A DNA stretch of 29,051 nucleotides from Candidatus Thorarchaeota archaeon. Lineage in GTDB: Archaea > Asgardarchaeota > Thorarchaeia > Thorarchaeales > Thorarchaeaceae. This document shows positions 1-25,628 of this stretch, in pieces. The notes beneath the pieces were generated by a model. The model saw only the letters and a list, made by a program, of their open reading frames with translations. It searched no databases and had not been told where the DNA came from. Made by a program: the position numbers and the translations under genes. The stretch's first letter is position 1, and each line of letters opens with the position of its first letter. The DNA lies in NCBI GenBank assembly GCA_048882045.1, contig JBHLRZ010000035.1, positions 1-29,051 of the forward strand, read 5' to 3'.

Positions 1-1736
1 TACCCCATATCAATAAGACCAGAGCCAGTCTCAGTGGCTGTAAGAGTGACGAGAAGACCCACTCCAGGAACAGGCTCTATGTCCAGCTTGATAACAGGCG
101 GAGTCTTGTCAACCTGATATTGTCGCGTCTTTGTATCCTCCCTGTTCCCTGTAGTGTCTGTCGAGTTGAATGAGATTATTACATTGCCCTCTAGTTCTAC
201 CATGAATGGTCCACTGTACATCATCCAAGGATCATCATTGACCTGGTATGCTGTAGTAGCAGCCTCATTAACTGTGAGAGTAACAGTGACATCAGAAACA
301 TACCAATTGTTCGCTCCCAAGGTACCGGAGAGAGTAATGGTTGTTTCTGGAGAAGTCACATCGATGATTGTAACAGTATCAGATAGTGTACTGGTTTCTT
401 GATCTTGAGGGCCAGTGTCAAAGTCCGCATTCGCAGAGGTCACTGTGATTGTGTGATCTCCTGCAGTTCCAGGAACAGAATAAATCCCTGGTGCAGTCCC
501 CACTGAGATCCCATCGACCTCAACCAAGACTGATTGAATGCCACTCTCCGGGTCATAGACTAATACATCCCAAGTCCCTGGATTGGCATCTGTGGAATCA
601 CCTGTATATGCGATCGAAATGACTGGACCAGTCCGGTCGTCGTCTGGAATGACATCTATCGTCACTGTGGCTATGTTGCTCACATCCTCAGCATCAATCG
701 CTTTGTAGGTGAATGAGTCCATTCCTGCAGTATCTGGATATGGTATATAGTTGAAACTTCCATCAGGGAGAAGAGTGAGAGTTCCGAATGATGGACCAGT
801 TTCCAACACAGCCTCCAGTGGATCGCCTTCAGCATCATAGTCATTTGCCAAGACACCTGGCTGTGACACTGTAAGTGGAGTGTCCTCGTCTGCTGTATAG
901 TAGTCATCCTCAGCGACTGGAGGTGAATTGATCTCGTCTAGATACCCTAAACCGATTAGTCCCTTCGCATAATGATCCTGAATCATGATCAGGTCCAAAG
1001 TATAGTCGTATATTGCAACTTCATCAATCAAACCTATGAGAGGTCCAGGATCTGGATCAAAAAGGTCCTGACCGATGAAAACTTGTCCAGGATTACTGAC
1101 AAATTCAGCTGGGAATGTCTGAGAATCCTCTTGACCATCAATATAGAACCAAACTCTGCTCGCGGACCTACGAAATACAACTGCAACATGATGCCATTGA
1201 TTGGGAGTAACGGTGAATGTCGGAGAAGACAATACCTGTTTGGAGGTTCCAAGTTGTTGTTCAAAGAATAGTTGGCCGTCCTGAACTGCGAAGTGGTATT
1301 GAGTAATGGAAGGACTGTTAGAACGAACAATAATCGTGTGATGGCCAACAGTATTCTGGAGGTTCACCCAAGCTTCAATCGTGAAAATTTCTGGCAAATT
1401 GAGATAAGAACTAGGATCTATGATCTCAATGTATTGACCCGCGAGAAGTTCCAAACAGGTTCCAACTATTCCTGAAGTCCACATGGATCCTCCTAAAGTA
1501 TGACCATTGACCTGAGGTAAGGTGCTATCAAACACATCTACTCCACCTGCTTCATTCATTTGCCAGTACGCGATGGGAAAACGTGTAATGATATTTGCAG
1601 GACTTTCAGAATCAAATATTCGAATGTGCGATGGAGTAGTATCTGGATTGAATTCGGACTGAGAAACAGCGCCAAATAGTATGAAAGCTAGAATCAATGA
1701 TAAGGCATACAGGCTAATTTTTCTGTTTCTCTGCAA
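1..1736 (-). CDS. Secreted/cell-surface protein with LamG-like jellyroll, Big_9 (cadherin-like Ig) and further Ig-like domains; 3' end runs off the window
   Basis: Hand translation from TTG at 1736 is open to base 1: MQRNRKISLYALSLILAFILFGAVSQ (signal peptide), IAYWQMNE...FTIEAWVN...NQWHHVAVVF...FYIDG...GLIDEVAIYD (LamG), NSPPVAEDDYYTADEDTPLTV...GVLANDYDAEGD...DGSFNYIP...DSFTY (Big_9), DVTSPETT...NNWYVSDVTVTL...YSGPF...STDTTGNRE...DKTPP (Ig-like). Absent from the ORF track because it has no stop in the window. Confidence 0.9.
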   Translation of the reverse strand, partial: MQRNRKISLYALSLILAFILFGAVSQSEFNPDTTPSHIRIFDSESPANIITRFPIAYWQMNEAGGVDVFDSTLPQVNGHTLGGSMWTSGIVGTCLELLAGQYIEIIDPSSYLNLPEIFTIEAWVNLQNTVGHHTIIVRSNSPSITQYHFAVQDGQLFFEQQLGTSKQVLSSPTFTVTPNQWHHVAVVFRRSASRVWFYIDGQEDSQTFPAEFVSNPGQVFIGQDLFDPDPGPLIGLIDEVAIYDYTLDLIMIQDHYAKGLIGLGYLDEINSPPVAEDDYYTADEDTPLTVSQPGVLANDYDAEGDPLEAVLETGPSFGTLTLLPDGSFNYIPYPDTAGMDSFTYKAIDAEDVSNIATVTIDVIPDDDRTGPVISIAYTGDSTDANPGTWDVLVYDPESGIQSVLVEVDGISVGTAPGIYSVPGTAGDHTITVTSANADFDTGPQDQETSTLSDTVTIIDVTSPETTITLSGTLGANNWYVSDVTVTLTVNEAATTAYQVNDDPWMMYSGPFMVELEGNVIISFNSTDTTGNREDTKTRQYQVDKTPPVIKLDIEPVPGVGLLVTLTATETGSGLIDMG

Positions 1737-20294: not shown

Positions 20295-23200
20295 ATGATG
20301 CCGTCTCATCGTCTGTTAGTCACGCTTCTAGTGTTGATATTCTTCTTGGCTCCACTCAGTGGACCATTCGCACAAATAGAGAGTAGTAATGGGGAAACTC
20401 CATCTAGTGTTGAAGAAACAGACGGAGTTTCAGGTCTGCAAACAACAAATAGAAGATCAGTCGTAGCAGCCGACCCGATTAGCGGAGTGCTTGACCCTGT
20501 AGTTGTTGAGCAATACGGCTACGAAGGAACTGGTCTGCTTAATGCTCGAACAGATTCAGCTTCTAATGACCAGAGCAGCATCCCCATTGATAATGCAACT
20601 GGGTGGGTAGGAAGTCAAGCAGAACTAGAGATTTGGAATATGGAAAGACTCTACGCTGAGAACGGAACTTTGGATGATGGCATCCCGGGTACCAATTACC
20701 ATCCAAGTGCCACAAGCGCATACCCCTATGGTTGGGATCTAGACTGGGATGACCCAAGCTCAGGGCTGCAAAATGTATCTACAACTTATGATGAAGACAA
20801 CGGGTATCTTGTTCTAGAAAGCAAAGCTGAATTGGCTACACCAGGTGGCTTGGTGGAATACAGACATTGGGATGGGACATATATCTACTGGAATCAGACT
20901 ATTCATAATGTTCCATATTCGGACAATCTCACTCTGAGTTTCATGTACAATTATGATAGTGGAATAATAGACAATCCGCCCATTGAGGTCGCTGGTTGGT
21001 TGTGGTTGGATGTGCTCATAGATGGTGCTTTCGTTGCATATTCTGATCTCATGACAGAGTGTCCTTCACGCAATACATGGTACGAGTTTGTTGTGCCAAA
21101 TTTGCTGGACCTACCTTCGACATTCAACCTACAAATTGGAATCTCTGTTGAGGCTGTGACTCCTCCCCCAACTGATTATTTTATCACGTACCCTGGTGCA
21201 GACTATGATGAAGATAGTGAGCTGGACTACAGTTTGGCTCAAATAAACAGGGTATTCCTGGACAACATTAGCCTTTTGAGTGTGAATCAGCCAAGTTATG
21301 ACGAGGTCGACCTCACATTCAATGCTGGAGTTTTCAGTACTGCAATTACAGAGTTCTCCAATTATGGTACTGCAGTAATCACAAACCCAAGTTACTGGAC
21401 GGATAATTATCTTGATGTCGGGGTTTCAGCAAATGTGAGCATTTCATTTGACTATGAAGTGAAACTGCTATCACACCACTTTGGTAACTCCCTTTGGACA
21501 TCACAGCCAACGAAGCAAGGTGTAGCGTATACAGTTGATGCAGGTGCAAGTGCAGCGTTATCAGCTTTCACCTATGTAGGAAATGAAGGAGTAGCAATCT
21601 ATGAGAATTTCACGGTTGAAATATCCCTTCCACCGGATTGGGAAAACATCACCATCTTCGATCCATTTCTCAATGATGTGACTGGTCTCTGTACATTTAC
21701 TCCAGGCTTGCTTGAAATACCAACATCAATCCTAGACAGATTGGGATGGTGGCAAGTGACGCTGGAATCGCCAAACTATGCGGAGTCAGTTACTACTCAG
21801 ATTGACGATACGGGATGGACTGATAGTTCAATATTCCGTCCAACGAACAAAACTAGAGTTGTAATTACTCTTGGAACTGCTTCTGATACTCCGCTAGTTT
21901 CGGACCCTGTCAATGTGACCTGGTATGCACCAGATGATAGCACATGGAGCCAAGACTCACCATCCTCAGGAGTTGGAGGTGTAGTGTACTCAGACCAAAG
22001 AACATTAGGAGGGTCTAACACGACAGCTGGTGAATGGAGTGTTGTTGCCGCTTGGACCAATGGGACTGAGGTAGCATATGGAGTAACAACCTATGACATG
22101 TACCACACTGCATCTCTTGATGTTCCTGTAGAGTACCAGACGGTTCAGACCGACATTGGTCTAGTAATTTCAAATTTCGTTTACTACACTGATACTGACA
22201 CATCTGAGTATCTCCTCGATGATTCAGTTACAATAACTGCAAACTGGACAGGATCAATAATACCCTTTACACAGGACCTCGTTAAGAATTGGTGGCGAGG
22301 CGAGTTTGATACTTCAGCACTGGAGGGAGGTCAATACATAGTTGTTGTGACAGCATCGAGACCATACTTTGATGACGTTACTACTCAATTCACAGTGGTT
22401 GCCACACAAGAAATGACTCTTGAAATTCTGAATGCTGGAGCAACACCAATTGAACGGGGACTGAATGAAGTATTCACGGTTCAAATGGACTATGAATTGC
22501 TGAATGGAACAGGAATCTCCGGAGCTATGCTCTATGTAGATTACTCTGGGCCTGGAGGCGGACTATCTTGGTCTAACTTCAATGACAACAATAATGGTCA
22601 TTACTCAGTAGACATTATTTGTGACATCGCAGTGACGTATTCTGTCACAATTACCTTGAACAAGACCTACTATCAAAGTGCTTCTGATTCATTTACTCTA
22701 GTCATAGGTGAAACAGGAACAGAACTTGAGTTGATCAACGGAACATCAGGTGTGGTAAACTATGGAGAGAGCTACAGACTAGTGGTTGAATATCGAAATA
22801 GCACTGGATTTGGACTTCCAGGAGCGGATTTAGACGTTGTATCTATCAACCCTGCGACAGGATTGACTAACACCAGCTTCACGCCCATCAGTGGAGGATT
22901 TTATGAAATCACTTTCACACCGACGACCACAGGAACCTTCTCAATAACCATCAGTGCAAGTCTTTTCAATCATGAAACTAAGTTCACAACTTTTACACTG
23001 ACAGGTGTTGTAATTCCGACAATCCTGACCTCAATTCCTTCAAGTGCAACAGTTGCGGTGAATGAGAGTTACATTGTTCAATTGCTCTTTCAAGATGAAG
23101 GATCCAATCCGATTAATGCAGCAAACATCACGCTGATAGAAACACCATCTGGAATAATCATTTCTGAGGCTATCCCTGTAGGTAACGGTTTGTTCAATAT

Positions 23201-25628
23201 TACACTTCGATCATCAGAGATGGATGTCTACAATCTACTCTTCAGGGCTTCTGCAAACAACTATCAGAGCTCTATTGTTGGATTCACACTTTCAGTGACC
23301 GCACTACAGACCAATCTGGAAATACAGAATCCAGGGACAGTTTTCGAAAATGGTCTCAATGAAGTTTTCACTCTTCAGTTGAGTTACCAACTCTTTAATG
23401 GTACTGGTGTGCCAGGAGCGTCATCTTCAATTATATTCTCAGGCCCGCAAGAAGGCCTTTCTTGGACTAATTTCACTGACTATAACAATGGGTCATACTC
23501 AATGGACATTACATGTAACGTGTCAGCGATATATGGAATATCTGTCACTCTATCAAAGAGTTACTACTACAATGCATCAGATTCTTTCACCCTGATTATT
23601 GGCGAAACAGGTAGTGAACTCCAGATTCTAAATGGTACTGCGGATGTTGTGTTATTTGGTAACAGCTACCTACTAGTTGTCGAGTATAGAAACAGTTCCG
23701 GATCAGGTCTGACTGGTGCCGATTTGCAGGTCGTCCAGATAACTCCAGAAGTTGGACTCAGTCACTCCAACTTTTCTCATATAACTGATGGATTTTATCA
23801 AATAACTCTGACACCCACTGCAGCTGGGTCTTTCTCAGTCGTTATCAGAGCAAGCATCTTGAATCATGTAACACAATATGCAACATTTACTCTGACTGCA
23901 GCAGGGATTCCAACTATTCTCACAGCATTGTCATCAAGTGCGACTATTGCGTTGGACCAGAACATCACTGTGCAATTCAGTTTTCAGGATGAAAGTCTGA
24001 ATCCGATAGACCTCGCAACGGTTGTAGTAGTAAATCCCCCAGCTGGCATCTTGATATCTAATGTTACACCCATTGGTGGCGGGCTCTATAACTTCACACT
24101 CACTCCTCAAGGGATAGGAAGCTATGACTTACTCTTTAGGGCTTCTGCAGACAACTACCAGAGTTCGAGTGCAGCTTTTACACTGTCAGCCACTGAGATA
24201 CCTACGATTCTAGAGTTTGAAGGAGATGTTTCGTCCGCTCAAGCAAAGTTTCAAGATTCATACGAATTGATTGTCTATTACTGCAGAGCTGACACTCCAG
24301 CACTAGAAAATGTTGATGGAGCAAGTCTTACTGTTCTTGTTCAGAGCTCAGGGCTTGTTGTTGACATATCTGAACATGTCGGATACTATGTGATCACAAT
24401 CACAGGCGAAGCAATTGGATCATGGTCTCTCACAATCTCTGCGGAAAAAACTGACCACCGTCTAGCAACCAAGCAGTTCCTATTCCAGGTGGAAGAGATA
24501 CCACTAACAATTGAAGTTCTAGATGGGTTACAGGGACCTGAGGGATTTCCAATCAGTTTCAGAGTAAAACTCACAGAAACTGAGACTGGAGATCCGGTCA
24601 CTGGAGCTACAGTCTACTATGACATTCAATTGTTAGATGGTTTGCCATATGGAAACCGAGAGAGTATGATTGAGTCTTCTTCTGAGCCAGGAGTATACAC
24701 TGCTTCGCTTACTATGCCTTCAGCTGACGAAACTTATTTCATTGTGATCGGATGCAACATTGCCAATTTTGTGTTAGACGACCCCCTCCCTATACAATTG
24801 TTGCCAAGACGAGATATCACCACGATGATCTACATGACAGTCAGGGACAATTCTTACGTCTTTATTGGTCTGGGTGCCATTGGGATTGGTCTTGTCTATA
24901 GGAGAAGTGCAAGAAAACGACGTATTAGACAAAACAAGGTTACACTCGCAGTAAAACGGCGATTTGATGATGTGAGAAACCTTCTCGGGGTAATCGTACT
25001 TCACAAGGACAGTGGTCTACCAATCTATTCTAAGATTCTCAGAGAGGGTTTGGAAGAGGCTGTGATTTCAGCCTTTATCACTGCAATCACAAGTTTCAGA
25101 GGCGAGTTTGATATTGAAACCTCGACTGAAGAATGGGGACTGATTCCAATTTCAGATATCATCAGAGTGATTTCTACTAACCGATTGATCTGCGCTTTCA
25201 TCACAACTGGTAATCCATCCCCCGACCAACGTGAGCGTATGATCAAGTTCGCAAAAACTGTTGGATTCATCTTCGATGACACAATGGAGGAGGTTCCAAT
25301 AGTCGTCCTAGATCGTCACACAACTATGCAGTTTGACTCACTGTTCGATGACCTCCTTGACGGTGCTCTTCTGCGAACCTACAAGCTTGATGACGAGAAG
25401 AAGTTCCCGACATCTACATGTGCTGATGAGAGAATTGCTCGGAAGCATGGAGAAGAGTTCAAACTTGAAGAGTTGGCGTCAGAGATAGCGGGATGTGGAC
25501 TCGAAGAGGGCCGCGTCTATCAGGCTATCATGAAGGCACTCGACAACCACCTCCTCATTTCAACGGAGGAGTCCCCCTTCAAGACAGAGATAATCAGAGC
25601 TCCCGAACCTGTTGAGGAAGAAAGCTAA
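20295..25628 (+). CDS. Giant single-pass surface protein: signal peptide, beta-rich ectodomain with Ig-like repeats, TM, cytoplasmic longin-like domain and wHTH-like tail
   Basis: N-terminal hydrophobic signal; ~100-aa repeats (T.L.......N....V.Y....G....GA......NG.Y.......G.Y...I.A....Y); many N-x-S/T sequons; TM YVFIGLGAIGIGLVY then RRSARKRRIR; LLGVIVLHKDSGLPIYSK...ISAFITAITSF. Confidence 0.85.
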   Translation: MMPSHRLLVTLLVLIFFLAPLSGPFAQIESSNGETPSSVEETDGVSGLQTTNRRSVVAADPISGVLDPVVVEQYGYEGTGLLNARTDSASNDQSSIPIDNATGWVGSQAELEIWNMERLYAENGTLDDGIPGTNYHPSATSAYPYGWDLDWDDPSSGLQNVSTTYDEDNGYLVLESKAELATPGGLVEYRHWDGTYIYWNQTIHNVPYSDNLTLSFMYNYDSGIIDNPPIEVAGWLWLDVLIDGAFVAYSDLMTECPSRNTWYEFVVPNLLDLPSTFNLQIGISVEAVTPPPTDYFITYPGADYDEDSELDYSLAQINRVFLDNISLLSVNQPSYDEVDLTFNAGVFSTAITEFSNYGTAVITNPSYWTDNYLDVGVSANVSISFDYEVKLLSHHFGNSLWTSQPTKQGVAYTVDAGASAALSAFTYVGNEGVAIYENFTVEISLPPDWENITIFDPFLNDVTGLCTFTPGLLEIPTSILDRLGWWQVTLESPNYAESVTTQIDDTGWTDSSIFRPTNKTRVVITLGTASDTPLVSDPVNVTWYAPDDSTWSQDSPSSGVGGVVYSDQRTLGGSNTTAGEWSVVAAWTNGTEVAYGVTTYDMYHTASLDVPVEYQTVQTDIGLVISNFVYYTDTDTSEYLLDDSVTITANWTGSIIPFTQDLVKNWWRGEFDTSALEGGQYIVVVTASRPYFDDVTTQFTVVATQEMTLEILNAGATPIERGLNEVFTVQMDYELLNGTGISGAMLYVDYSGPGGGLSWSNFNDNNNGHYSVDIICDIAVTYSVTITLNKTYYQSASDSFTLVIGETGTELELINGTSGVVNYGESYRLVVEYRNSTGFGLPGADLDVVSINPATGLTNTSFTPISGGFYEITFTPTTTGTFSITISASLFNHETKFTTFTLTGVVIPTILTSIPSSATVAVNESYIVQLLFQDEGSNPINAANITLIETPSGIIISEAIPVGNGLFNITLRSSEMDVYNLLFRASANNYQSSIVGFTLSVTALQTNLEIQNPGTVFENGLNEVFTLQLSYQLFNGTGVPGASSSIIFSGPQEGLSWTNFTDYNNGSYSMDITCNVSAIYGISVTLSKSYYYNASDSFTLIIGETGSELQILNGTADVVLFGNSYLLVVEYRNSSGSGLTGADLQVVQITPEVGLSHSNFSHITDGFYQITLTPTAAGSFSVVIRASILNHVTQYATFTLTAAGIPTILTALSSSATIALDQNITVQFSFQDESLNPIDLATVVVVNPPAGILISNVTPIGGGLYNFTLTPQGIGSYDLLFRASADNYQSSSAAFTLSATEIPTILEFEGDVSSAQAKFQDSYELIVYYCRADTPALENVDGASLTVLVQSSGLVVDISEHVGYYVITITGEAIGSWSLTISAEKTDHRLATKQFLFQVEEIPLTIEVLDGLQGPEGFPISFRVKLTETETGDPVTGATVYYDIQLLDGLPYGNRESMIESSSEPGVYTASLTMPSADETYFIVIGCNIANFVLDDPLPIQLLPRRDITTMIYMTVRDNSYVFIGLGAIGIGLVYRRSARKRRIRQNKVTLAVKRRFDDVRNLLGVIVLHKDSGLPIYSKILREGLEEAVISAFITAITSFRGEFDIETSTEEWGLIPISDIIRVISTNRLICAFITTGNPSPDQRERMIKFAKTVGFIFDDTMEEVPIVVLDRHTTMQFDSLFDDLLDGALLRTYKLDDEKKFPTSTCADERIARKHGEEFKLEELASEIAGCGLEEGRVYQAIMKALDNHLLISTEESPFKTEIIRAPEPVEEES
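22410..24200 (+). repeat. Intragenic tandem duplication of an 894-nt (298-aa, three Ig-like domain) unit
   Basis: GLNEVFT codons start at 22458 and 23352, and GETG codons at 22707 and 23601 (both offsets 894 nt); FRASA[ND]NYQSS ends both copies; boundaries approximate. Confidence 0.85.

Follow-up and report, generated by a model that had tools for sequence, protein, structure and literature searches.

A Thorarchaeota surface glycoprotein family with a predicted cytoplasmic tail of longin fold and a winged-helix-like end

The window, which is the whole stretch of 29,051 nucleotides analysed here from a Candidatus Thorarchaeota archaeon (contig JBHLRZ010000035.1), carries at positions 20295–25628 of the forward strand a single intact open reading frame that starts with ATG and encodes a protein of 1777 amino acids. 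The protein is composed, in this order, of a signal peptide, an ectodomain of about 1490 residues, a transmembrane (TM) helix, a basic helix and a cytoplasmic tail of 240 residues (Table 1). The motifs quoted for this gene by a first-pass annotation, which had been made from the letters alone, were all found at the coordinates assigned to them, with LLGVIVLH beginning at nucleotide 24981 and QFDSLFDDLL ending at nucleotide 25358. Other Thorarchaeota, as well as this genome itself, encode full-length homologues, and we regard the layout of a surface glycoprotein with a single TM helix and a tail of longin fold as close to certain. A short form of 267 residues in the closed genome G242 was set aside as an artefact, as masked bases lie upstream of it. 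Among the sequencing runs listed as carrying the gene, there was no RNA run, and the DNA runs belonged to two sediment/metagenome studies, some of them possibly derived from the source sample.

Table 1. Position of the gene and its predicted parts in the window, with the evidence for each.
Feature	Residues	Nucleotides	Strand	Evidence
Whole gene, type I surface glycoprotein with cytoplasmic longin and winged-helix tail	1–1777	20295..25628	+	Single open frame
Signal peptide, MMPSHRLLVTLLVLIFFLAPLSGPFAQ	1–27	20295..20375	+	Hydrophobic stretch; putative cleavage site
N-terminal non-repeat part of the ectodomain, Trp-rich, family-conserved	28–679	20376..22331	+	Conserved columns in 29-protein alignment
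Stalk, about eight Ig-like repeats of about 100 residues	680–1510	22332..24824	+	Pfam, self-matches, family profile
Tandem duplication, block of about 308 residues with three repeats	702–1009 and 1001–1307	22398..24215	+	BLASTP within the protein
TM helix, YVFIGLGAIGIGLVY	1521–1535	24855..24899	+	Hydrophobic 15-mer, Kyte-Doolittle mean 2.03
Basic juxtamembrane helix, ending in R-F-x-D-x-x-N	1536–1562	24900..24980	+	AF2 and conservation
Cytoplasmic longin-fold domain, beta-beta-alpha-beta-beta-beta-alpha-alpha	1563–1693	24981..25373	+	AF2, structural superposition
Small winged-helix-like domain, acidic third helix	1694–1757	25374..25565	+	AF2, superposition
Acidic C-terminal end and stop codon	1758–1777	25566..25628	+	Low confidence in the model

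The N-terminal hydrophobic stretch covers residues 1–29, with a Kyte-Doolittle mean of up to 2.35, and nearly all of the 96 family members have an equivalent TM segment immediately ahead of the tail. The tail was placed in the cytoplasm, in accordance with the positive-inside rule, because RRSARKRRIRQNK directly follows the TM helix; seven of the 13 residues just after the helix are Lys or Arg. The ectodomain holds 33 N-x-S/T sequons, all of them within residues 100–1266, compared with 17.5 expected from its composition, and the tail holds none, compared with 0.6 expected. The type I topology with one TM helix that had been proposed for the protein agrees with the signal peptide, the basic flank and the confinement of the sequons to the outside, and the sequence thus has the features of a type I single-pass surface glycoprotein, of which the topology and the glycosylation are predicted.

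The first-pass annotation had also described an ectodomain of about 1500 residues that is rich in sequons and Ig-like repeats, and this description was upheld by the sequon excess, Pfam matches, internal periodicity and a tandem duplication. The stalk is periodic at about 100 residues over residues ~680–1510, with self-matches at offsets of about 100, 200 and 300 residues, and a BLASTP comparison of segments with the whole protein indicated that two neighbouring blocks of 308 residues, each consisting of three repeats, are 55% identical (E 3e-108). A Pfam Filamin match at residues 822–887 was above the cut-off at 35.1 bits, and there were weaker ectodomain matches to Invasin_D3 (residues 1221–1285), YtkA (residues 1424–1476), Big_1 and MG2. 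These Pfam families of the stalk recur in 9–15 of the 29 members of the family, the profile of which matches filamin and the Ig domains of the intimin-like adhesin 4e9l (E 8e-7). The N-terminal region of about 650 residues belongs to no recognised family, its sole Pfam match being the weak one to MG2 at residues 508–587; in the 29-protein family alignment, near-invariant W, G, N and D columns were found at residues 409–687. Across the 29 members, the ectodomain is one homologous and conserved family, as expected of a structural surface protein, instead of an assortment of interchangeable sensor modules; a structural surface protein fits this pattern as well as a receptor does.

The structure of the tail was predicted by AF2 from an alignment of 96 tail sequences, resulting in a model with a pLDDT of 89.1 and a pTM of 0.85, whose numbering is converted to that of the protein by adding 1539; the prediction from the single sequence had a pLDDT of only 31.8 and was not used. 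The basic juxtamembrane helix reported in the first-pass annotation appears in the model as a helix at tail residues 2–23 with a pLDDT of about 95, and the helix has a median pI of 10.8 across the family, with R1556, F1557, D1559 and N1562 kept in 84–99% of the members. It is followed by strands at residues 24–31 and 37–42, a helix at 49–65, a short strand at 78–79, strands at 84–88 and 92–98, and helices at 104–121 and 135–154, so that the beta-beta-alpha-beta-beta-beta-alpha-alpha order that had been read from the letters, which in longins goes with a five-stranded antiparallel sheet, was reproduced in the model. When the model was superposed on solved structures by VIA-align, the best matches were longins over the whole domain (residues 23–150), with TRAPPC2 (7b6d_H) at Z 10.7 over 124 residues with an rmsd of 3.0 (model residues 24–149), sedlin (2j3w_A) at Z 10.3, VAMP7 (4afi_B) at Z 9.9, Fuzzy (7q3d_C) at Z 9.9 and a Lokiarchaeota longin (8yqg_B) at Z 9.0. 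AP sigma, AP mu, Sec22 and SRX also matched model residues 23–150, within the range of Z 9–10.7, and the GATOR1 chain 8fw5_C was aligned to the longin part alone at Z 7.9. Foldseek matches of the model included zeta-COP, MglB and Asgard Roadblock3. The tail domain, therefore, is of longin fold by high-confidence prediction, and the alternative of a PAS or GAF fold was not borne out, as solved longins match best. In a prediction for two copies of the tail (residues 1–222), the score was 0.01 against a mark of 0.42, which speaks neither for nor against dimerisation.

In terms of sequence, the tail has four invariant residues (G1574, F1594, A1597 and F1601) and about 35 strongly conserved positions among the 96 members. 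Together with P1576, S1579 and P1618-D1621, the invariant residues are assigned to a conserved surface, the candidate interface with a partner. It had no match in Pfam and NCBIfam, and a search against PDB sequences gave nothing by phmmer and only noise at E 0.4–1 by profile. For the 96 tails at E<=1, the families Longin, Sedlin_N, Sybindin, Clat_adaptor_s, Fuz_longin_1 and Intu_longin_1 were absent among the matches listed, which cover 25 of 36 families. The tail profile does match soluble longin-wHTH proteins encoded elsewhere in this genome, with hhalign probabilities of 87.5% and 94.6%. These in-genome relatives match Fuz_longin_1 and Intu_longin_1 and not Robl_LC7; one of them (C37:16175-17221) passes the Fuz_longin_1 cut-off of 26.1 with 26.9 bits, and two carry Fuz_longin_1 together with TrmB or HTH_47 matches. 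A search by shape yielded HTH_47-bearing soluble Asgard proteins that span both domains of the tail (TM 0.54, residues 23–203) and also a longin-fused Thorarchaeota Arf/Ras GTPase. The resemblance to Mon1 and Fuzzy that had been suggested for the tail is thus retained indirectly, through the soluble paralogue, whereas the tail itself matches no curated longin family; Mon1 and Fuzzy, like the other tri-longin GEF subunits Ccz1, Inturned, HPS1 and HPS4, possess three longin domains, whereas the tail consists of one longin domain and a winged-helix-like unit of about 65 residues in place of three longins in tandem.

In the AF2 model, the winged-helix-like unit comprises a strand at residues 156–159, a helix at 170–176, a bridge at 183–184, helices at 185–193 and 199–211 and a strand at 215–217. 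These elements are compatible with the alpha1-beta1-alpha2-alpha3-beta2(-beta3) fold of DNA-binding wHTH domains, in which the recognition helix is basic or polar. It was superposed on MibB (5ehk_B) at Z 7.6 over 65 residues with an rmsd of 2.0 and on NisB (4wd9_A) at Z 7.4, both values falling under 8, the level treated as safe for VIA-align; we take the matched segments of MibB and NisB to be wHTH-type leader-binding elements. No Pfam HTH family was found for the protein, nor for the 96 tails among the matches listed, and a comparison of this part with the wHTH of ten soluble paralogues revealed no sequence relative (hhalign probability <=1%). Of the wHTH-like end claimed for the tail, the order of elements and the structural matches therefore stand, whereas kinship in sequence does not, and a winged-helix-like end is plausible on the basis of the model. 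The last 20 residues were modelled with a pLDDT of 58–69 and have a median pI of 4.05 across the family.

Longin and winged-helix parts also follow each other in the NPRL2-like proteins of Asgard archaea and in the soluble longin-wHTH paralogues of the present genome, the longin part of which is related in sequence to that of the tail. These soluble longin-wHTH proteins are 300–430 residues long and usually contain two wHTH units of the TrmB/HTH_47 type, whereas the tail is tethered to the membrane and has one small acidic winged helix that is unrelated in sequence to theirs. The longin type of Asgard NPRL2-like proteins has been described as fused to two-component signalling domains, in an account whose main text does not contain the words transmembrane, receptor, membrane-anchored or Ig-like (Liu et al., bioRxiv 10.1101/2020.10.19.343400).

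With a threshold of E<=1e-3 the tail family numbers 139 clusters, of which 86 reach E<=1e-30, and in almost all of them the tail is located C-terminally in proteins of 1000–2300 residues with a TM segment directly upstream. Matches were found in 160 of 301 Asgard genomes, including 65 of the 76 genomes of the same taxonomic family, and matches to the full module in large open frames extend to at least four further Asgard families. There are one to six copies per genome, often in tandem, and the present genome has six paralogues spread over four contigs. Between close orthologues, the tail is 80–84% identical compared with 43–51% for the ectodomain, and this far stronger conservation of the tail points to a constrained cytoplasmic interaction. 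As candidate partners, the genome encodes at least 32 Ras-family and at least 15 roadblock matches, and none of the matches listed shares a contig with any of the six paralogues. No neighbouring gene is common to the paralogous loci. Recurrence of neighbours reflects synteny within orthologous loci: the present locus has MscL, AlkZ, a PEMT/ICMT-type methyltransferase, an ORF of 151 aa and a membrane protein of 271 aa, and the C4 locus has DNA ligase, PTPS and FolE2. The methyltransferase gene, which starts the same-strand neighbourhood at a distance of 65 nt upstream, was weighed as a possible connection with prenylated GTPases but was set aside because its orientation relative to the glycoprotein gene varies among the orthologous loci and its approximately 14 paralogues adjoin no other gene of this family.

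Longin and roadblock domains serve as docking platforms in TRAPP, Mon1-Ccz1, Fuzzy-Inturned, SRX-SRbeta and MglB; platforms of this class bind a small GTPase, usually as dimers, and act as GEF, GAP or scaffold. By analogy, the tail may form a platform close to the membrane on which a cytoplasmic protein docks, and this partner would most likely be among the many small GTPases or the soluble longin/roadblock proteins of the genome. The winged helix would then contact proteins through a second surface, in the manner of NPRL2/NPRL3, rather than bind DNA, and the protein would connect a patch of the surface coat, or a contact that it makes, with the cytoplasmic machinery. We hold a surface glycoprotein with a docking platform in its tail to be the best explanation overall, with a confidence that is about even; the docking function of the tail taken by itself, above all with a GTPase as partner, is an analogy to which we give somewhat less than even credence. 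It is rather unlikely, again by analogy, that the protein is a true transmembrane receptor, in which a contact or ligand of the Ig-like repeats would act through a rigid TM and juxtamembrane helix on the longin domain, which would recruit or activate a small GTPase.

A possible, if doubtful, alternative is that the protein is a structural component of the surface coat, S-layer-like or of a glycocalyx, whose tail anchors, sorts or spaces it without signalling and could, with the same doubt, self-associate or attach to the cytoskeleton or membrane. This would accord with the single-family ectodomain, its Ig-like stalk and heavy sequon enrichment, with the number and frequent tandem arrangement of the paralogues, with a fast-evolving ectodomain next to a conserved tail, which is typical of exposed envelope proteins, and with the lack of a linked signalling gene at the loci studied. 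However, what usually follows the TM helix in surface glycoproteins of archaea is a short cytoplasmic stub or a lipid anchor, and a two-domain tail of 240 residues with so many conserved positions is unlike the usual stub; in addition, the longin fold in known systems is a protein-docking module and not an anchor. We consider it improbable that the domain is functionally a roadblock of the MglB type with the juxtamembrane helix as its alpha-1, in which case the protein would serve an MglA-like GTPase as a GAP or polarity factor at the membrane. Roadblock folds do equal the longins in Z (Asgard Roadblock3, 9jue_D, 10.0; MglB, 3t1r_A, 8.9), both proteins are among the top Foldseek matches, the alignment of 3lgo_A spans model residues 1–123 and so takes in the N-terminal helix, and there are weak matches to MAPKK1_Int in 3 of the 96 tails and to Robl_LC7 in 1 of the 96 (E 0.033). 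Nevertheless, the roadblock alignments cover only the shared core (residues ~19–124), most of them ending at about residue 124 and skipping the roadblock's own alpha-1 (chain ranges from ~24), whereas the longin alignments extend to residue ~150 and include the two C-terminal helices. In roadblocks, the alpha-1 helix lies against the sheet at the position that alpha-3 takes in longins; the helices after the sheet in the tail are alpha-alpha, as in longins; the Fuzzy- and Inturned-type matches of the in-genome relatives also argue against a roadblock. Finally, a membrane-tethered transcription regulator, whose winged helix binds DNA either from the membrane, like ToxR and CadC, or once proteolysis has released the tail, would explain the winged-helix-like fold at the C-terminus and the TrmB- or HTH_47-type wHTH of the soluble relatives of the longin part. 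It is, in our estimation, highly improbable: the presumed recognition helix, the third of the unit, is acidic throughout the 96 members, with a median pI of 4.4, a median net charge of −2 and E1738, its best-conserved residue, in 93% of them, and DNA binding by the winged helix is therefore unlikely; the unit also shows no sequence similarity to the wHTH of the soluble paralogues or, among the matches listed, to a Pfam HTH family, as described above.

Among known systems, the tail shares its predicted fold and order of elements with eukaryotic longins that make up small-GTPase platforms or adaptor cores (TRAPPC2/sedlin, TRAPPC1/C4, Fuzzy-Inturned, Mon1-Ccz1, SRX of SRP receptor alpha, the N-terminal domains of AP sigma/mu, zeta-COP and VAMP7/Sec22), of which 112–126 residues superpose on the model at Z 9–10.7, and in both cases the domain is placed at the cytoplasmic face of a membrane. 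Eukaryotic longin SNAREs, however, are tail-anchored with the longin domain at the N-terminus, whereas the longin domain of the Asgard protein lies behind the TM segment of a giant extracellular glycoprotein. Roadblock/LC7 proteins (MglB, Asgard Roadblock 1–3 and LAMTOR2/3) share the alpha/beta core with the tail over ~95–100 residues at Z 8–10 and are members of the same superfamily of platforms that dock GTPases, but the C-terminal helices of the tail are arranged as in longins; structures of Asgard Roadblock 1–3 are available as PDB 9jue, 9jq8, 7yh1 and 7f8m (Tran et al. 2024, PMC10933270). On the extracellular side, the protein resembles the bacterial Ig-repeat adhesins of the intimin/invasin/FdeC type and the C-terminally anchored surface glycoproteins of archaea in its stalk, built from Ig domains of the Big_1, Invasin_D3 and filamin-like kinds, and in its signal peptide, numerous sequons and TM anchor near the C-terminus. 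Unlike the Asgard protein, neither the bacterial adhesins nor the archaeal surface glycoproteins are known to have a conserved folded cytoplasmic domain. In the literature on Asgard longin/roadblock and winged-helix proteins, we did not find this architecture described, the accounts found covering soluble forms, and the family is apparently a major class of Asgard envelope glycoproteins that has been undescribed so far.

Longin and roadblock proteins and small GTPases are among the best-known eukaryote-like proteins of Asgard archaea, and their targets in the cells are barely known. The present family, which occurs in one to six copies per genome in most Thorarchaeota, physically couples a longin domain to the cell surface. 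Should the tail dock no partner, the family would still mark a major class of Asgard envelope glycoproteins. If the receptor reading were true, the protein would be a prokaryotic forerunner of the receptor-to-GTPase or cargo-to-adaptor coupling of eukaryotes that operates without kinases. More generally, were a GTPase or a longin/roadblock protein to dock on the tail, the family would offer a defined and testable entry into the membrane and surface organisation of Asgard archaea and would bear on the origin of receptor-adaptor coupling.

The receptor gene is a single uninterrupted ORF encoding the 1777-aa protein P0001, on a contig that is represented in full by the window and belongs to an Asgard MAG of 3.63 Mb (93 contigs, 93% complete). 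All of the motifs quoted in the first-pass annotation were found in place within this ORF. The stretch RRSARKRRIRQNK lies directly C-terminal to the TM, so that the last 240 residues, which make up the tail, should be cytoplasmic as judged from sequence. The ectodomain contains 33 N-x-S/T sequons versus 17.5 predicted from its composition, and the tail contains none. The Ig-like repeats, also proposed earlier, were borne out by Pfam (Filamin above the cut-off, with weaker Invasin_D3, YtkA, Big_1 and MG2), by a period of about 100 aa over aa ~680-1510 in self-comparison, by a tandem duplication, and by a profile of 29 full-length relatives, which matched the Ig domains of the intimin-like adhesin 4e9l (E 8e-7) and those of filamin. 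Family members vary widely in length (1170-2340 aa), and differences in repeat number may account for this.

Features of P0001, of the window and of contig C13 of the same genome
Feature	Location	Strand	Basis or remark
Receptor gene (P0001)	20295-25628	+	
Signal peptide	P0001 1-27		hydrophobic
Tandem duplication, ~308-aa block of three Ig-like repeats	P0001 702-1009 vs 1001-1307; window 22398-24215	+	55% identity
TM	P0001 1521-1535; nt 24855-24899		sole other strongly hydrophobic stretch besides signal peptide
Juxtamembrane helix, 22 residues	N-terminal part of tail model		AF2
beta-beta-alpha-beta-beta-beta-alpha-alpha domain	tail 24-154; P0001 1563-1693		AF2
beta-alpha-alpha-alpha-beta unit	tail 156-217		AF2
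Acidic end	C-terminus of tail		low confidence in AF2 model
PEMT/ICMT-family membrane methyltransferase, 198 aa	19633-20229	+	PF04191 44.9 bits; PF04140 31.1 bits
ORF, 315 aa	19176-20123	-	over-long call; only last ~120 aa are MscL channel (Pfam aa 225-309; MscL orthologues 120-166 aa); 5' half is antisense shadow of PEMT/ICMT gene
Surface-type protein	3-1736	-	cut by contig end; Laminin_G_3 (ConA-like lectin) and cadherin-like/Big_9 domains
Protein, 308 aa	15047-15973	+	two tandem AsnC/Lrp-type HTH units (two HTH_24 / HTH_AsnC-type stretches)
ORF, 526 aa	8761-10341	+	no Pfam match at thresholds used
ORF, 314 aa	2010-2954	+	no Pfam match at thresholds used
ORF, 364 aa	27948-29042	-	no Pfam match at thresholds used
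ORF, 2547 aa (outside window)	C13:31976-39619	+	related Ig-like repeats; directly upstream of divergent receptor paralogue C13:39816-44318

The tail itself matched nothing in Pfam, NCBIfam or PDB sequences. An exhaustive HMMER search with aa 1540-1777 against 1.84 billion representatives retrieved 139 clusters at E<=1e-3, 86 of which also passed E<=1e-30. In almost all of them, the module forms the extreme C-terminal end of its protein (at most 2342 aa long), and a hydrophobic TM directly precedes it in practically all of the 96 full-coverage members. In the alignment of these 96 sequences (A1), four positions are invariant (G1574, F1594, A1597 and F1601) and about 35 more are kept in at least 80% of the members. 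They cluster in the beta1-beta2 hairpin (G-L-P-I-Y-S) and helix alpha-1 (S-A-F-I-T-A-I-T-x-F-R-x-E), and further in strand beta-3 (P-I-S-D) and where the juxtamembrane helix ends (R-F-x-D-x-x-N). A1 was required for a usable AF2 model (pLDDT 89.1, pTM 0.85), as single-sequence AF2 failed.

A search of this model against structure representatives returned longin domains as top matches, aligned over the full domain (model 23-150), with Z scores of 10.7 for TRAPPC2, 10.3 for sedlin, 9.9 for VAMP7 and Fuzzy, and 8.4-9.6 for AP sigma and mu, Sec22, SRX, BLOC-3, Mon1 and a Lokiarchaeota longin. Roadblock proteins equalled them in Z (Asgard Roadblock3, 10.0; MglB, 8.9), and Foldseek gave a mix of zeta-COP, MglB and Roadblock3, whereas the roadblock alignments covered only residues ~19-124 and left out the roadblock's own N-terminal helix, with the exception of 3lgo_A, which takes in the juxtamembrane helix. 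Therefore, the modelled topology is of the longin type inside the shared longin/roadblock superfold, in agreement with the fold first assigned and not with PAS, GAF or another non-longin fold. The suggested likeness to Mon1/Fuzzy has indirect support. The tail profile also found about 10 soluble in-genome proteins of 200-680 aa, matched in their longin part only, and two of these, an adjacent pair on contig C37, both contain Pfam Fuz_longin_1 (26.9 bits for one of them; cut-off 26.1) together with Intu_longin_1 and TrmB or HTH_47 winged helices. hhalign also related A1 to two soluble paralogues (probability 87.5% and 94.6% over ~85-95 longin residues). On these sequence links, the tail longin belongs to the group of NPRL2-like or Fuz/Mon1-like longins that Liu et al. 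reported from Asgard archaea (bioRxiv 10.1101/2020.10.19.343400). However, none of the 96 tails matched a curated longin family among the Pfam families listed, so the tail is not assigned as a member of one.

For the C-terminal unit, annotated earlier as wHTH-like, the element order in the AF2 model fits a winged helix, and a shape match spanning both tail domains (TM 0.54) was obtained to HTH_47-bearing soluble Asgard proteins. In sequence, the unit bears no resemblance to the winged helices found in the soluble paralogues. Chains of MibB (Z 7.6) and NisB (Z 7.4) also matched, both below the tool's safe level, in segments that we take to be wHTH-type leader-peptide-binding elements. The structural evidence for a predicted winged helix is moderate.

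The tail profile identified six receptor-type paralogues in the window's own genome: the P0001 gene on C35, three in tandem on contig C4, one on C23 and a divergent one on C13. Close orthologues of the tail (78-87% identity) come from MAGs of Candidatus Thorarchaeota, SMTZ1-45 and AB_25 among them, which marks the organism as an archaeon of Thorarchaeota type. At E<=1e-15, A1 matched in 160 of 301 sampled Asgard-phylum genomes, comprising 65 of 76 in the window's own family (1-6 copies, open frames of 1000-2260 aa) and members of other families such as f9 (60/68), f12 (18/19) and f24 (7/7), with no match in twenty of the Asgard families searched. In five genomes from four of these other families, most matches spanned the whole module (within open frames of 740-1960 aa). 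The 29 full-length members can be aligned with P0001 over their entire length (19-41% identity); Trp, Gly and Asn are nearly invariant at many columns of the ectodomain, and all members share the same Ig-type Pfam families. In this census, for which the first-pass annotation had called, the ectodomains therefore form one family rather than many sensors on a common tail. Close orthologues share 80-84% identity in the tail and 43-51% in the ectodomain.

No partner-suggesting gene was found among the window neighbours, which include an aldo-keto reductase, transcription regulators, an AlkZ-like glycosylase, MscL, the PEMT/ICMT-type methyltransferase, a DinB-family protein and other unrelated genes. 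Across 24 loci in 16 genomes, recurring neighbour families were confined to orthologous loci, indicating synteny, and none was common to paralogous groups. The methyltransferase gene precedes the receptor gene by 65 nt in the same orientation, and three further genomes also have it close to their orthologous receptor, but with its orientation varying; since none of its ~14 paralogues adjoins another receptor paralogue, this proximity is probably synteny as well.

The first-pass annotation envisaged signalling to small GTPases, and by analogy it is possible, at somewhat less than an even chance, that the tail acts as a docking platform through which the surface protein is coupled to a small GTPase or to a partner of the longin/roadblock kind. 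Ras-family matches number at least 32 in the genome and roadblock matches at least 15; among the matches listed, none lies on the contigs with receptor paralogues (C35, C4, C23 and C13). This agrees with a remark on the Asgard archaeon MK-D1, in which small GTPase genes as a rule do not share operons with genes for roadblock or longin proteins (Tran et al, 2024, PMC10933270), so that the missing linkage is weak evidence either way. Only slightly less probable is a role confined to structure, as coat or anchor. A roadblock-type GAP is a minor alternative. So is a tethered transcription factor: the third helix of the winged-helix unit is acidic family-wide (median pI 4.4), its best-conserved residue being the glutamate E1738, and the unit is read as protein-binding rather than as a DNA reader.

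The architecture of P0001 itself is well supported and real, and no description of an Ig-repeat/TM/longin architecture was found in the literature on Asgard longin and roadblock proteins. Longin-domain proteins being already known, the novelty of P0001 lies in the placing of a longin domain in a new, membrane-spanning architecture.
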